The position numbers and the translations under genes were made by a program. A stretch of DNA of 64,000 bases from Acidilobaceae archaeon (GTDB lineage Archaea > Thermoproteota > Thermoprotei_A > Sulfolobales > Acidilobaceae), in assembly GCA_038897215.1 (NCBI GenBank), contig JAWAWX010000001.1:800001-864000 (forward strand), written 5' to 3'. Below the pieces are notes generated by a model that was not told the DNA's origin, searched no databases, and was given only the letters and a program-made list of their open reading frames with translations. Below, piece by piece: positions 1,997 to 6,902 of the stretch. The stretch's first letter is position 1; each line of letters opens with the position of its first letter.

Positions 1997-3307
1997 TCAT
2001 GTTTTCAAGCTGACCTCTACTACGTCTAGCTCGATGCAGTAAGCGTTTCTACCGAGAGCTTCTGAAAAGCTGGGAGTAGTTCTGTTATCGTCTCCGCTAA
2101 CCAGCTCCTTTACGTACAATCCTCCCTCGGTTTTTATCAAACACTCGACTACAGCAGAGTTTACCTTAGTGCATACCACCTTCTCGACTCTCCTGACCCT
2201 GCTAGTGTCTCTCTTTCTGCCCAAGACCCTCTTGGGCGTTCTTTGGAGTATCGTGGCTCCCGTGAGCTTCTGCTCTAGCAACCGTAGCTCGTCGTCGCTC
2301 ACACCCCCTTCTACGGCGATGAGCGCTCTGTAGGTCTTGCTCTTGACTGCTAGCTCCTCCTTGTATATTCTGATAACGTCTCTGGACTCAGCGAGCCCCT
2401 CTACGCTGAACTCAATGACATTCATAGCTAGAGAGTTCAAGGCGTTCTCGAGTTCTCTCAAGCCGAGACTCCAGACTTTAGGAGCCTTCACCTCGACGAG
2501 AGCGGGTCTCCCTGACCCGAGCATTCTAGCATCTATATCCTCCCGTCCCGAAGCATGTAATACCACGCTCTCTCCTCTCGTCGTAGCGAGGACCCCAGTA
2601 GCGGCTTCCTCTATAGAGAAGTACCTAGGGCCTCCTATGGTGGGCCAGTAGGCTTGACTTATCATTCTACCCTTCTTCCAGTATCTACACTTAATCAACA
2701 AGCTAGAAGCCTGGACCTCGATAGAGCCCTCTGGGAACTTGACGACTAGAGTTACGTCGGGGTGCTTGAAGTCGGGCGTGAGACCTGTCAGCTTCTGCAC
2801 TCTCTTCCCGACCTCTCTCCTGATCTCGCTCTTGAGAGACTCCCAAAAGCTGAGACCATACTTGCTTGCTATCTCCTCTTCTCTCTTCAAGTAGCTCTCC
2901 TCACAGACTACTCCGATTAGGAAGCTTCTGGCTCCCTGAGCCTTCAGGATCGACGCGGATTCTCTCGAGGCTTTCTCGATGAATTCCTCGAGAGAGCTAC
3001 CACATATAGCGCAAAGTCTGGTCTCAGGCTTTACCCCGAAGACCTGGACGTAGAGCCCCTCGGCTATCTCGCCGATATTGGGAGCGATGGCTTTCAGCTC
3101 TTCACTAGCGCTCTTGTCCCCATAGCGTATCCTCTCGTGCAACCTCATCACTAAGGTTCTCTTCAAAGCCTCTCCTCTATGTCTGTTATCCCACCCGTAC
3201 CCTAGTCTGGCGAAGAGTCTCCCGAGACACCTATCGCATAGCGGAGCTTCTCGGAGAAGCCTCTCTGCCACCTCGAGGAGGTTCGAACTCTTCTCTGGAG
3301 AACTCAA
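1997..3307 (-). CDS. pus10: tRNA pseudouridine(54/55) synthase Pus10
   Basis: LCDRCLGR, HASGREDIDARMLGSGRP, QRTP.RV, GGLYVKELVSGD..RT.PS. Confidence 0.95.
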   Translation of the reverse strand: MSSPEKSSNLLEVAERLLREAPLCDRCLGRLFARLGYGWDNRHRGEALKRTLVMRLHERIRYGDKSASEELKAIAPNIGEIAEGLYVQVFGVKPETRLCAICGSSLEEFIEKASRESASILKAQGARSFLIGVVCEESYLKREEEIASKYGLSFWESLKSEIRREVGKRVQKLTGLTPDFKHPDVTLVVKFPEGSIEVQASSLLIKCRYWKKGRMISQAYWPTIGGPRYFSIEEAATGVLATTRGESVVLHASGREDIDARMLGSGRPALVEVKAPKVWSLGLRELENALNSLAMNVIEFSVEGLAESRDVIRIYKEELAVKSKTYRALIAVEGGVSDDELRLLEQKLTGATILQRTPKRVLGRKRDTSRVRRVEKVVCTKVNSAVVECLIKTEGGLYVKELVSGDDNRTTPSFSEALGRNAYCIELDVVEVSLKT

Positions 3308-3373
3308 GAATAGAGCCCTCTCTACATCCTGATACCTCAGGCTTTTAGCTAGTTGTGATCGCTAGAGTGGTGT

Positions 3374-4738
3374 TCAGAGAGCTCTCGCCTCGCTGGACCT
3401 GTATTCTCGCTTCTTGCGCGCTACTCTCTCTAGAAACTCCTCTACCAGCTCCTCTAGGCTCGGCCCCTCGACTATCTCTACCTCGTAGCTAACTCTAGCT
3501 ATGGGCTTGTCTAGCCTTATCACTCGAGCTAAGTCTATAGGGGCCCCTAGCACGACCGTTTCAGCCGGTATTCTCTCAAGCGTTCTCTCTAAGTCTCTAA
3601 GCTGCTCCTCAGTGTACCCTAGGGTTGGGACGACGGGCCCTATGTGCGGGTAGTCTCTGTAGACTCTCTCTATCCAGCCTACAGCATAGGGTCTAGGGTC
3701 TACCACCTCCGCTCCATGCTCTACAGCTGCAACATATCCTGCTCCATACGGTGCCTCGCCGTGAGTGACTGTGGGCGCATCCTCAACCACTACTACCCTC
3801 TTGCCTGCAACGAGTTCAGGCTTGTCTACGTAGACTCTGCTCACCGCTAGAGATATCCTGGCTCTCGGATTGACTCTCCTCACGTTCTCCACAACCTTCT
3901 TCACGTTCTCCGGCTTAGCTCTATCGACCTTATTTACTATCACAGCATCAGCTAGCCTGATATTGACCTCGCCCGGATAGCTTTCGACCTCCTGCCCTGG
4001 TCTCATGGCGTCAGCTACTGCTATCGAGTAGTCTGGCTTCACTAGAGGCCAGTCGTTATTGCCTCCATCCCAGAGGATTACGTCCGCGTCTCTCTCGGCT
4101 TCCTCGACTACTCTAGCGTAGTCTACCCCAGCATAGACTTTCAAGCCCATTCTCACATAGTGCTCGAACTCTTCTCTCTCCTCTAGAGTTAGATTCATCT
4201 CGTCTAGCTCTTCGAGAGAGGATACTGAAAACACCTCCTTGAAGTCGTTGTAGACCATTGGGTGCCTGACTGGAGCGACTCTATAGCCCTTCTTGGTTAG
4301 TATAGACGCTACCCTTCTAGCCACGCTACTCTTGCCTGCTCCAGTTCTAGTAGCTGTAACAGCTATCACTGGCTTCTCGGATTCAAGCATGGTCTCTCTA
4401 GGTCCTAGTATAGCGAAGGAGGCTCCGGTAGCGAGCACTCTGCTGACTATGCTCCCCAGATTTCTGTACGTGAGGTCGCTGAAGGCTAGCACAACGAGGT
4501 CTACACTCTCCTCCCTAATGACCTCCTCCAGCTTCTCTGCTGGCACTATTCTAACACCCTCGGGGTAGAGGCTTCCAGCAAGTCTAGACGGGTATGCTTC
4601 AAGCGCTACTCCGGGTATCTGGGTTAAAGCGAAGGCAACTACTCTAAACATAGGGTTGTCTCTGAAGACTAGGTTAAAGTTATGGAAGTCTCTCCCACCA
4701 GCTCCTAGCACTAGAACTCTGACTGGGCTTTTTCTCAA
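3374..4738 (-). CDS. Cyclic 2,3-diphosphoglycerate synthetase-like P-loop protein (COG2403)
   Basis: GAGGRDFHNFN, ATRTGAGKS, RHPM, WDGGNND, EDAPTVTHG. Confidence 0.85.
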   Translation of the reverse strand: MRKSPVRVLVLGAGGRDFHNFNLVFRDNPMFRVVAFALTQIPGVALEAYPSRLAGSLYPEGVRIVPAEKLEEVIREESVDLVVLAFSDLTYRNLGSIVSRVLATGASFAILGPRETMLESEKPVIAVTATRTGAGKSSVARRVASILTKKGYRVAPVRHPMVYNDFKEVFSVSSLEELDEMNLTLEEREEFEHYVRMGLKVYAGVDYARVVEEAERDADVILWDGGNNDWPLVKPDYSIAVADAMRPGQEVESYPGEVNIRLADAVIVNKVDRAKPENVKKVVENVRRVNPRARISLAVSRVYVDKPELVAGKRVVVVEDAPTVTHGEAPYGAGYVAAVEHGAEVVDPRPYAVGWIERVYRDYPHIGPVVPTLGYTEEQLRDLERTLERIPAETVVLGAPIDLARVIRLDKPIARVSYEVEIVEGPSLEELVEEFLERVARKKREYRSSEARAL

Positions 4739-4946
4739 CTCTCAAGCCCCTGTTAGCGAATATGCGGAAGTCGCAGTTATAAAGTTACACTTGTTACACT
4801 CGATGAATGCTCTTTGACAGCTGTAACTGTTGGATGGAGTCTAGTCTAGTCTTACTCCACTAATCGAGTCGATGTCGAGCATAGCCTTGGAGATTAGCCT
4901 AGTAAAACTATAGTCTCAAGAGAAGCCTAGACTAGAGCGGGGGGAG

Positions 4947-5438
4947 TTGAGGAGAGTTCTGCTACTACTGCCATGCAATAAATGCGTGAGACTCGGAGAC
5001 TACGCTCTCTGCGATAGCTGGAGAAGAGTACTGGCTAGTGTTGGGGACCTCGTCTCAGCAGGGTTGCTCGAGCTAGCAGCTATCGACTCCTGCAAGCCCG
5101 GAGTGGTAGTCTACGGGGAGGAGCTGAGCTACTCTTGGTGTGACATAGAGCCCTACTGGGGTAGGACCTATGGCGGAGATGGCTCTCGATTCGAGATTCT
5201 AGTTGACGCTATAGCTAGAGATTTGAGAGAGCTCTCGCTAGAGTACAGGGCTATAGTAGCATACCTTAACGTCAAGGCGTACAAGCTCGCTGTTCTCGAA
5301 GCATCGAGAAGAACGGGGGTTACAGTATTCGACCTAAGCCCTCCTAGAATGTCGCCGCTCTCCTTCAGGTCTAGGAGGAGTCTGGAGAGGCTGAGGGCGT
5401 CTCTCCTTGAGCTTGTCAGTCTACATAGTGATGCCTGA
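4947..5438 (+). CDS. Cys-rich hypothetical protein, DUF5591/ArcS-domain-like
   Basis: GGGGGAG SD before TTG; N-terminal LLLLPC strand, PGVV..E...Y, IVAYL; stop overlaps the next gene. Confidence 0.65.
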   Translation: MRRVLLLLPCNKCVRLGDYALCDSWRRVLASVGDLVSAGLLELAAIDSCKPGVVVYGEELSYSWCDIEPYWGRTYGGDGSRFEILVDAIARDLRELSLEYRAIVAYLNVKAYKLAVLEASRRTGVTVFDLSPPRMSPLSFRSRRSLERLRASLLELVSLHSDA

Positions 5439-6150
5439 CCTAAGCCTCAGCAAGGTTAGAGCAGTAGAGCTAGCGTCGAGAGAGACGGATTTCGGGGTAC
5501 TCGTCTCCTTCTCAGTGATCAAGATGAAGCCGGTGACTCTCGAGAGGCTAGCTCTGCTACGCTCTCTAACAGACGTCCCCGTCATGCTTGACTCAGGAGC
5601 ATACCATCTAGCGAGACTAGGAGTAGAGGTTAGAGTAGAGGAGTACGCTGAGCTAGCCTCAAGAAACAGCAGGCTCTTCGACACGGTAGTCGCGCCAGAC
5701 ATACCCGGAGACTGTGCTACAACTCTAGAGAGAACGAGAGTCTTCGCTAAGCTCTACGGAGACCAGTTCGTGCCCGTCACTCAAGGGAGGAGCGTCAGAG
5801 ACTACGTTCTCTGTAGCGAGGAGCTAAGCGAGTACGCTGGCGAGAAGCTAGGAGTAGGGGGGCTCGACGGGGAGAAGAAGAGAGCGGGCTTTGTCTCCGA
5901 GCTAGTAGCAGCTCTCCCAAGCGGTCTCCACATCTTCGGAGCAGGGTCCAGGCTAGTAGCAAGCCTCTCTAGGCTAGGGCTAGCGAGAAAAATAGCCTCT
6001 ATAGACAGCTCTGGCTGGCTCGCGGAGATACGCTATAGGAGGAGGAGTGTGCTCAAAGCTGAGAACGTAGTAGAAGCCAACGCTAGAGCTATAGTAGCGT
6101 ACGTGGATAGAGTCAAGAGAGCATACTCCAAGAATGCTCTCGAGCCGTGA
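5431..6150 (+). CDS. Minimal tRNA-guanine-transglycosylase (TGT/DpdA)-like protein
   Basis: MLDSGAY, APDIPGD, VPVTQG, GVGGL, LHIFG, IDSSGW in canonical TGT order; no CxCxxC; ATG 5431 overlaps the upstream stop (ORF track starts 5407). Confidence 0.8.
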   Translation: MPDLSLSKVRAVELASRETDFGVLVSFSVIKMKPVTLERLALLRSLTDVPVMLDSGAYHLARLGVEVRVEEYAELASRNSRLFDTVVAPDIPGDCATTLERTRVFAKLYGDQFVPVTQGRSVRDYVLCSEELSEYAGEKLGVGGLDGEKKRAGFVSELVAALPSGLHIFGAGSRLVASLSRLGLARKIASIDSSGWLAEIRYRRRSVLKAENVVEANARAIVAYVDRVKRAYSKNALEP

Positions 6151-6207
6151 GAGGGGAGAGGGGAAGGTAGAGAGTAAACTAAAGTCGAGGTAGCTAAAGA
6201 GGAAGAG

Positions 6208-6831
6208 TTACTGCTTTACCTTCTCTGTTAGAATGTATACCTTACTGCCCACTATTGACGCATTGGGTATAAGGACTACGGTTTTGTCGTCCTTAGTCAT
6301 CCTAGTGTAGACTATGCCGATCTCGTCTACGTGTCCCTCCTCGCCAACGACGTTGACTCTATCTGCGACCAGCTTGAAGGGCCTTATGAGTATTAGGAAG
6401 AAGCCAGCTACGACCTGAGAGAGGATCTGCTGAGTAGCGTAGCCTACCACGATTGCCAGAAAGCCTGCTAGCGCAACCGCAGCAGCTCCGCCGACCACCG
6501 CGCCTATTATCACAACGACTATGGCTCCCATGCCGACCAGGAATACGGCGTTTCTAACAGCAGCAGCTGTAGCTATATCCTCGTGGCTAGCATAGGTAGC
6601 GTAGAAGGCAGCGTTCGATAAAGCCTTTACTACGAAGTAACCGAAGATTATTATCAGTGCAGCGTTAATGTAGGGATTCAGTCCTGTCAAGTCGACTCCG
6701 AAGATGTCTTTGATGGTAGCGAATATAGCGGCAATGATTGCTCCCACGATTATGTAGAGGATGATGTAGATTAACGCCTTTACTAGCTCTCCTCCAACCC
6801 TCTTCCTAGCCTCTTCTCTCGTCAGGCTCAA
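6208..6831 (-). CDS. mscS: Small-conductance mechanosensitive channel, MscS family (short form)
   Basis: TM helices then GYATQQILSQVVAGFFLILIRPF, G.V.EIG..YT, V.IPN. Confidence 0.85.
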   Translation of the reverse strand: MSLTREEARKRVGGELVKALIYIILYIIVGAIIAAIFATIKDIFGVDLTGLNPYINAALIIIFGYFVVKALSNAAFYATYASHEDIATAAAVRNAVFLVGMGAIVVVIIGAVVGGAAAVALAGFLAIVVGYATQQILSQVVAGFFLILIRPFKLVADRVNVVGEEGHVDEIGIVYTRMTKDDKTVVLIPNASIVGSKVYILTEKVKQ

Positions 6832-6902
6832 CTACCACACCATTACCTCCCGCGCTACTCTGAGAAGATATAAGCTTTATAGTCGAGCGTCGATCTCGGA
6901 CC

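Follow-up and report, generated by a model that had tools for sequence, protein, structure and literature searches.

Overlapping genes for a minimal transglycosylase-like barrel and a divergent ArcS-core protein in Acidilobaceae: a candidate orphan 7-deazaguanine modification module

Introduction

DNA modified with 7-deazaguanines is on record from bacteria, where the Dpd system makes it, from phages and from two archaeal viruses. In phages and viruses DpdA, a member of the tRNA-guanine transglycosylase (TGT) superfamily, can adjoin ArcS2, a stand-alone version of the DUF5591 core of archaeosine synthase (ArcS) (Cui, Hutinet and colleagues, PMC10516641). Two such pairs provide a precedent for joint action on DNA. 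When placed in E. coli, the DpdA2 of Vibrio phage nt-1 alone gives dPreQ0 in plasmid DNA and, together with ArcS2, gives dG+; Sulfolobus virus STSV2 has DpdA and ArcS2 only, its DNA carries dCDG, and its host is without que genes (PMC10516641). In the papers searched we found no characterisation of a 7-deazaguanine DNA system from cellular archaea, nor any paper on cellular archaeal pairs of the DpdA and ArcS-core type. Here we analyse a pair of genes of this kind, open reading frames (ORFs) 1 and 2, in the chromosome of a hot-spring archaeon of the Acidilobaceae (assembly GCA_038897215.1, contig JAWAWX010000001.1). The pair lies in a stretch of 64,000 nucleotides (positions 800,001 to 864,000 of the contig), hereafter the window, whose own numbering is used for coordinates unless a locus is named.

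The pair and its described counterparts

Both genes lie on the + strand. ORF1 (4947..5438; 163 aa from a TTG start in the ORF list) encodes a divergent DUF5591 protein of the ArcS C1 or ArcS2-like kind. ORF2, read either from TTG 5407 (5407..6150, 247 aa) or from ATG 5431 (5431..6150, 239 aa), encodes a minimal, Zn-less protein of the TGT superfamily that resembles the DpdA transglycosylases. The likeness to STSV2 is one of design: in both cases the genes overlap (STSV2_15 and STSV2_16 by 23 bp in the record), a Zn-less TGT barrel of ~250-290 aa with DSG and the nucleophile Asp is coupled to a stand-alone DUF5591-fold protein of ~160-185 aa, the host phylum is Thermoproteota and no que genes adjoin; the STSV2 DpdA, too, has no CxCxxC. 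In sequence, however, the two pairs are very remote, and they fall in separate tree clades. The STSV2 DpdA has His and SLD where ORF2 has Gln and APD, and the STSV2 ArcS2 keeps the motif PC-X3-KPY-X2-S-X2-H whereas ORF1 is without its K, P, S and H. Moreover the STSV2 pair is viral, while the pair in the window is chromosomal, with no close relatives found in IMG/VR. As a separate observation, STSV2-like pairs – adjacent or overlapping, and 54-69% identical to STSV2_15 and STSV2_16 – are chromosomal in at least seven genomes of the sister family f4 (loci L042, L046, L048, L051, L053, L057 and L064).

The DpdA2 and ArcS2 of phage nt-1 follow the same enzyme logic, there shown by experiment, and the DUF5591 protein of nt-1, which is the ArcS2 tested, resembles ORF1 in structure; nt-1 differs in being a bacterial virus that encodes the preQ0 pathway and in having no tblastn similarity to ORF1. 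The bacterial Dpd system (dpdA-K) likewise employs a TGT-fold DNA transglycosylase with two catalytic Asp residues (PMC10164549), the structure of which (7ui4) is matched by ORF2, and like the relatives of the window pair it joins a modification module to ATPase and nuclease genes. Bacterial DpdA differs in its greater length (413 residues in 7ui4), its conserved CXCX2CX22H Zn site, its DpdA-specific insertions and its His181 (PMC10164549). A further difference is that no relatives of dpdB-K lie near the window pair, which has no PADLOC match. Bacterial DpdA requires DpdB, and the tailoring enzyme of the Dpd system is DpdC rather than a DUF5591 protein. The archaeal tRNA enzymes, arcTGT and ArcS, use the same two folds, the TGT barrel and the C1/DUF5591 domain. 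The window pair differs from these in lacking C1/C2/PUA domains and the Zn site, in forming a clade of its own, in having a partial ArcS motif and in being accessory, whereas arcTGT is near-universal in the family.

The first-pass annotation of this DNA had put the pair forward as its best candidate for an undescribed system. That claim must be given up, since overlapping DpdA and ArcS2 genes have been published for both STSV2 and nt-1 (PMC10516641): the kind of system is known, and the window pair is a new, unannotated branch of it, not something categorically new.

Two genes conserved as a unit

The annotation's view of two coupled ORFs, divergent from the upstream gene, is borne out: both are real, overlapping and conserved across homologues. 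The overlap had been put at 8 bp. ORF2 homologues, however, start with a strand of consensus VxVFLVLPDLS, which in the window is present only from TTG 5407 (MSLSVYIVMPDLS); because homologue N-termini fit this start, the overlap is probably 32 bp, as at locus L007. The pair is no chance occurrence: word-based searches returned 87 homologues of ORF2 (~250 aa, those with a named source labelled Acidilobaceae or Desulfurococcales) and 13 of ORF1, and an exhaustive profile search found 45 relatives of ORF1.

Wherever the flanks of a close ORF2 homologue can be seen (10/10 loci), ORF1 adjoins ORF2, mostly with overlap, and so the concern that the two genes might fail to co-occur elsewhere can be set aside. 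Gene order is not fixed: ORF1 precedes ORF2 in the window and at L007, L014, L071 and L079, and ORF2 precedes ORF1 at L008, L009, L012/L117, L068 and L069. The exhaustive profile search also recovered one natural fusion (P0105, 418 aa, known from one 1.9-kb contig), residues 3-156 of which are ORF1-like and residues 163-402 ORF2-like. The partner is absent beside a distant ORF2 relative (L010/L011, 35% identity).

ORF2: a minimal barrel with apparently complete catalytic residues

Structure comparison upheld the TGT fold that had been proposed for ORF2. The AlphaFold2 (AF2) model, with a pLDDT of 93, matches bacterial TGT in Foldseek (6rkt, 5.8e-7, TMq 0.75) and in VIA (Z 17.7, root-mean-square deviation (rmsd) 3.1 A, 229/239 residues aligned), arcTGT with nearly the same score (VIA Z 17.6; 1iq8 also matched by Foldseek) and Salmonella DpdA (7ui4, Foldseek 6.9e-7, 21% identity). 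Profile hidden Markov model searches of the ORF1 and ORF2 families against PDB sequences gave chance matches only.

The motifs DSG, APD, Q, GGL, HxFG and IDSS had been read in this order from the single sequence, and an alignment of 39 homologues shows them invariant or nearly so. With residues counted from ATG 5431, the invariant positions are D54-S55-G56-A57-Y58, P89-D90, Q118, G141, G143, H167, F169, G170, D192, W196, R203 and R204. Taking the roles of catalytic and pocket residues from work on DpdA (its Asp residues and His181 of the bacterial enzyme; PMC10164549), D54 in DSG (5590..5598, +) falls at the general acid/base position of TGT and DpdA, aligned with the DSG of arcTGT, STSV2-like and viral DpdA, and D192 in IDSS (6004..6006, +) at the nucleophile position, aligned with the D of DSVDT/FDSA in DpdA and arcTGT. 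Three further elements align to the guanine pocket of arcTGT and the DpdA groups: D90 in APD (5692..5700, +), the base-recognition Asp, which aligns with the xLD/xPD segment of other TGT-superfamily groups; Q118 (5782..5784, +), which is Gln as in tRNA TGTs and His in DpdA groups; and the base-pocket loop GVGGL (residues 141-145; 5851..5865, +), in which G144 and L145 recur in at least 90% of homologues. HxFG occupies residues 167-170 (+ strand). The stretch W196...R203-R204 (6016..6042, +), which follows the nucleophile, is specific to the family and, from its conservation, possibly a nucleic-acid contact.

The claim that ORF2 is without a Zn site, a PUA domain or C-terminal domains also stands: the protein has two Cys only (C95, C127) and no CxCxxC, and it ends ~47 residues past D192. 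Conservation and model together point to a minimal barrel of the TGT/DpdA type that is apparently catalytically complete.

By sequence comparison the nearest neighbours of ORF2 are of DpdA type. ORF2 matches phrog_887 ('queuine tRNA-ribosyltransferase') at 3.4e-8 and, by tblastn, phage DpdA at 3e-4; the DpdAs of Mycobacterium phage Quesadilla and Microbacterium phage Megan are among these, and their genes are located in FolE/QueD/QueE/QueC clusters. Alignment of the ORF2 family with STSV2_15 gave an hhalign probability of 91.5, and the A1 profile scored viral DpdA-like proteins at 35-51 bits versus 23-30 bits for arcTGT. Three homologues (P0011, P0012, P0018) reach 24.7-25.3 bits against the DpdA model PF23859, below its cut-off of 27 bits. 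A scan of IMG/VR with the ORF2 profile turned up DpdA-like proteins that were all distant (24-37% identity in partial matches); close members of the family were not among them.

A maximum likelihood tree – unrooted, with long branches – contains three groups: canonical arcTGT, set apart from the ORF2 clade by a 100/100 branch of length 2.5; STSV2-like together with phage and viral DpdA (91/80); and the ORF2 family with a few long-branch archaeal TGT-like proteins. Since the tree splits it from arcTGT and from STSV2/phage DpdA alike, ORF2 represents a lineage of its own. Nor is it the only arcTGT-like copy in its genome, a possibility that the first-pass annotation had raised: a canonical arcTGT is present elsewhere as a 514-aa frame (G000:C1:628589-629557), which the ORF2 profile recovers weakly (9.4e-6), across the 100/100 branch. 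Two TGT-like paralogues in another genome (L018 and L023, 3.6 kb apart on G286:C142) have DSG, APD and Q and no GG loop; they group loosely, on long branches, with the ORF2 family.

ORF1: a DUF5591-type fold with a rewritten ArcS motif

The first-pass annotation had noted five Cys and an ArcS-like LLLLPC start in ORF1, as the sequence confirms, and had proposed a DUF5591/DUF6884-type fold with a degenerate ArcS motif. Its AF2 model (pLDDT 85.5) has AF0587 (2q07) as best PDB match (Foldseek 2e-4; VIA Z 13.0, rmsd 2.9 A over 126 residues), the next match falling to 8.4. In the ESM Atlas the five nearest clusters are all PF17884 DUF5591 (TM 0.70-0.81); among these five are 'archaeosine synthase subunit alpha' as well as fusions of DUF5591 with TGT and with radical SAM. 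DUF6884 comes next at 0.61. Viral models in BFVD that match are the DUF5591 protein of Vibrio phage nt-1 (E 1.4e-3, TMq 0.63) and several DUF6884 proteins.

Sequence comparison is sensitive to the reference chosen. Against 30 DUF5591 domains from the phylum hhalign gave a probability of 90.8 (E 1.2e-6, 121 columns), and against a 12-sequence alignment of stand-alone DUF5591 proteins a probability of 5; with the single STSV2_16 sequence the ORF1 family aligned over 13 columns, the LLLPC stretch only. The ORF1 profile matches the DUF5591 regions of 456-497-aa proteins directly, at ~1e-6. There is no Pfam match to ORF1 at E<=1, PF17884 matches nothing in the whole genome, and 50,697 phage records yielded nothing that matched ORF1 by tblastn. 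Structure and profile evidence together place ORF1 in the DUF5591/DUF6884-type fold, with a degenerate ArcS motif.

The motif itself begins MRRVLLLLPCNKC..GDY..C. Its residues P9-C10...G17-D18-Y19 (4971..5003, +) are the counterpart of ArcS PC-X3-KPY, and all five are invariant in 15 homologues; hhalign sets GDY on KPY after a 3-residue insertion. The layout is PCN...R.GDY..C..W, with K replaced by G and P by D, and with S and H not conserved. ORF1 has exactly five Cys (C10, C13, C22, C49, C65), three of which (C10, C49, C65) do not vary among close homologues, while C10 alone persists in distant ones. A Cys-cluster metal site was considered and rejected, because C13 and C22 vary and distant relatives share no Cys but C10.

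Several proteins related to ORF1 may be noted in their own right. The closest sequence link (ORF1 profile 1e-6) is to L049, L054 and L056, proteins of 456-497 aa from family f6 with a canonical PC-X3-KPY DUF5591 at the C-terminus and ~270 N-terminal residues without TGT catalytic motifs. Two metagenomic proteins, P0110 and P0112, join an ORF1-like domain to an extra domain of ~150 aa, N-terminal in one and C-terminal in the other, with the common motif MEVCR.INGV. In proteins of 540-560 aa from other families of the phylum (L036, L038, L039, L041 and others) Pfam DUF5591 matches the C-terminal part at up to 1e-21. To read these last as ArcS would be wrong: all TGT catalytic motifs are kept, and they are arcTGT-like, with PQ replacing PC in the ArcS-type motif.

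Distribution among related genomes

Family-wide counts are drawn from 67 genomes of the same family. ORF1 is found in 21/67, representing 10/15 genera, and is patchy within genera (2/6, 2/8, 1/7). The same genomes contain arcTGT in 59 cases, QueC in 22, canonical DUF5591 in 21 and QueF-like in six, the last confined to one genus. QueC is absent from 13 of the 21 pair-bearing genomes, and QueF-like or canonical DUF5591 is also present in 11 of the 21. These co-occurrence counts indicate that the pair is accessory, that it does not require its own genome to make preQ0 de novo and that it is no mere replacement for archaeosine synthase. Whole genera have arcTGT, often with DUF5591, but are without QueC; set beside the counts for arcTGT and QueC, this points to preQ0 salvage in these hot-spring archaea.

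The genome of the window has QueC elsewhere, as an unfused 268-aa frame, in addition to its arcTGT (own-genome coordinates given for this observation: G000:C1:45447-46145 and 628589-629557). As the first-pass annotation stated, no que or dpd genes, dpdBCD included, are nearby: none occurs within ~6 kb of the pair. Outside the window, at G000:C1:32000-32642, a second QueC-like region is split, with one TGA and two TAG codons, and looks decayed.

A HerA/NurA-like module in relatives

A further observation comes from the surroundings of the pair in related genomes. At L068, at L069 (same organism as G418) and in G070 (L117) three further genes stand beside it: one for a conserved 116-aa protein (45% identity, L068 versus L117), one for a HerA-like ATPase of 737-772 aa (PADLOC HerA, 1e-34 to 1e-36) and one for a protein of 534-545 aa that has no Pfam match and for which every one of the nearest Atlas clusters bearing a name is NurA (score 0.91, 193 shared features). 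This accessory block (L117:5417-9638; L068:7326-11555; L069:7330-11820) differs from housekeeping HerA and NurA, and it is arranged with the pair in two ways, one convergent and one co-directional. Of the 67 genomes, 16 contain the NurA-like family; 13 of these have the pair, and the NurA-like gene lies <=4 kb from ORF1 in G418, G438, G439, G440, G441, G070 and G443. It is absent from 8/21 pair-bearing genomes. The pair is found at the same locus as in the window, with 60-67% identity and also without the HerA/NurA cassette, in G432 of the same genus and at L007, from a metagenome-assembled genome. The word 'orphan', used of the pair in the first-pass annotation, is thus right for this genome and wrong for several relatives, where the pair adjoins the HerA/NurA-like module.

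Proposed function

We favour, with modest assurance, the view that the pair is an orphan 7-deazaguanine modification module acting on DNA, as sequence and analogy suggest. A DNA target is preferred because the nearest neighbours of ORF2 are DpdA-type, tRNA-binding parts are lacking, the distribution is accessory, viral pairs offer a precedent and HerA/NurA-like genes are linked to the pair in relatives. ORF2 would cut a guanine out of a polynucleotide, with double-stranded DNA as the most likely substrate, and put a 7-deazaguanine base in its place by the double-displacement mechanism of TGTs, with D192 as nucleophile and D54 as general acid/base. The base would be preQ0, either from the QueC pathway of the genome or salvaged. 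ORF1 would then act on the inserted base, Cys10 probably attacking the nitrile, and could yield an amidine, amide or carboxy derivative or, since most of the ArcS catalytic motif is replaced, some other product. In relatives the pair, with the HerA ATPase, the NurA-like nuclease and the 116-aa protein, would have the layout expected of a system that marks self DNA and attacks unmarked DNA. In the genome of the window it would stand alone as an orphan modification module.

Several points weigh against this reading. The ORF2 family lies outside the DpdA clade (91/80) in the tree, and all 39 family members have Gln118, the residue of tRNA TGTs, at a position that is His in bacterial, STSV2-like and viral DpdAs. 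The window ORF2 matches neither PF23859 nor PF01702 (Pfam, E<=1), and ORF1 retains only P9, C10 and Y19 of the ArcS motif. With QueC absent from 13/21 pair-bearing genomes, the base donor is uncertain. The window's genome is without a recognised archaeosine synthase (no DUF5591 or QueF match), so that a role in tRNA is conceivable, and tRNA-related genes – for Pus10, D-Tyr-tRNA deacylase, a ThrRS editing domain and AlaX – lie near the pair in several contexts. A defence role in this genome is doubtful, because it holds no NurA-like 545-aa protein, no large HerA, no 116-aa protein and no other restriction-type neighbour of the pair; queries with the module recovered there only distant HerA paralogues and one 352-aa NurA 150 kb away. 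Moreover the genomes behind the phyletic counts are related to one another, so that these counts are not independent.

The points concerning tRNA speak for action on RNA instead, whether by ORF2 placing a 7-deazaguanine at a site other than tRNA G15 or in another RNA, with ORF1 tailoring it, or by the pair providing a split, PUA-less ArcS-like route that finishes archaeosine where ArcS, QueF-like and GAT-QueC are missing. Q118 and GGL resemble tRNA TGTs, the structural Z scores of ORF2 are highest against tRNA TGT and arcTGT (17.6-17.7), and the genome pairs arcTGT and an unfused QueC with no match to DUF5591 or QueF; the tRNA-related neighbours amount to four contexts. Since ArcS acts even on preQ0 nucleoside (PMC11298593), RNA could be a substrate for a core domain that lacks PUA. 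We nonetheless regard an RNA target as rather unlikely: ORF2 lacks the PUA, C1/C2 and Zn subdomain typical of tRNA TGTs and has phage DpdAs as its closest relatives in sequence; within genera the pair is patchily distributed; QueF-like or canonical DUF5591 is already present in 11/21 pair-bearing genomes; in genus g6 arcTGT and QueC occur without the pair; and the enzymes linked to the pair in relatives are HerA/NurA-like DNA enzymes. That linkage, together with the intact guanine pocket (D90, Q118, GGL), the invariant basic stretch R203, R204 after the nucleophile and the fact that characterised TGT-superfamily enzymes all act on polynucleotides, makes it improbable that the substrates are free bases, nucleosides or nucleotides, for example in 7-deazapurine salvage or detoxification, or that the pair exchanges a base other than a 7-deazaguanine. 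Such a role would account for the lack of any known nucleic-acid-binding appendage in ORF2 and for the largely replaced ArcS motif of ORF1, and ArcS does accept preQ0 nucleoside and its 5'-monophosphate (PMC11298593); 7-deazaguanine salvage must occur in the family, as 13/21 pair-bearing genomes are without QueC while arcTGT is nearly universal.

It might also be argued that the pair is here a functionless leftover of a five-gene cassette that has lost its HerA/NurA-like genes. None of the three module proteins was found in the window's genome, which is small (1.16 Mb), and two hot-spring metatranscriptome runs gave 0 reads over 3300-6900, with ~3% of reads sampled and the presence of the organism there not established. 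Yet neither frame is broken and no invariant residue has been lost, and G432 and L007 have the pair at the same locus without the cassette, which indicates long-term maintenance. As 8/21 pair-bearing genomes are without the NurA-like gene, solitary pairs appear to be a recurrent state, like orphan methyltransferases, and decay to a remnant seems to us an outside chance.

What would a DNA-modifying pair of this kind mean? The family goes unseen by Pfam, NCBIfam and PADLOC – no Pfam or NCBIfam model matches ORF1 or ORF2 at E<=1 and PADLOC matches neither – yet it is conserved, coupled and predicted to be catalytically complete. The HerA/NurA-like module in relatives would be a new read-out arm for 7-deazaguanine marks, and the altered motif of ORF1 could reveal new nitrile chemistry in a pair that is small (~410 aa in two proteins) and thermostable. 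If the target were RNA, the pair would fill the missing archaeosine-finishing step in these lineages. A fuller version of the DNA reading, which as a whole we offer only tentatively and consider doubtful, is that hyperthermophilic Acidilobaceae mark their own chromosomal DNA by means of a Zn-less, Gln-type transglycosylase (outside the five named DpdA subfamilies) and an ArcS-core variant with a rewritten site. The derivative might be new to DNA and the base often salvaged preQ0; the mark would be read by a HerA/NurA-like machine in relatives and be an orphan epigenetic mark here.

Genomic setting of the pair

The neighbours of the pair in the window, from the ORF list and Pfam, are genes for a P-loop NTPase, Pus10, an MscS-type channel and an ABC transporter. 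The P-loop NTPase gene (3374-4738, - strand, 454 aa) lies upstream and is divergent from the pair; the intergenic region between them (4739..4946) ends, on reading the sequence, in a G-rich Shine-Dalgarno-like GGGGGAG (4940-4946) that abuts the ORF1 start. Only within the same genus and at L007 do Pus10 and the P-loop gene remain syntenic with the pair, and contexts vary between genera. No insertion or deletion boundary can be defined by 'empty site' comparison, because synteny of the P-loop gene is retained only in the same genus. The NTPase has partial CobW/MinD-type Pfam matches only. It was considered as a DpdB-like partner and rejected, since it adjoins the pair only in the same genus and at L007 and is conserved in 46/67 family genomes irrespective of the pair. 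The MscS-type gene (- strand) comes after ORF1 and ORF2; contigs of a sediment metatranscriptome match exactly, not the pair, but this neighbouring gene (6189-6331 and 6579-6821).

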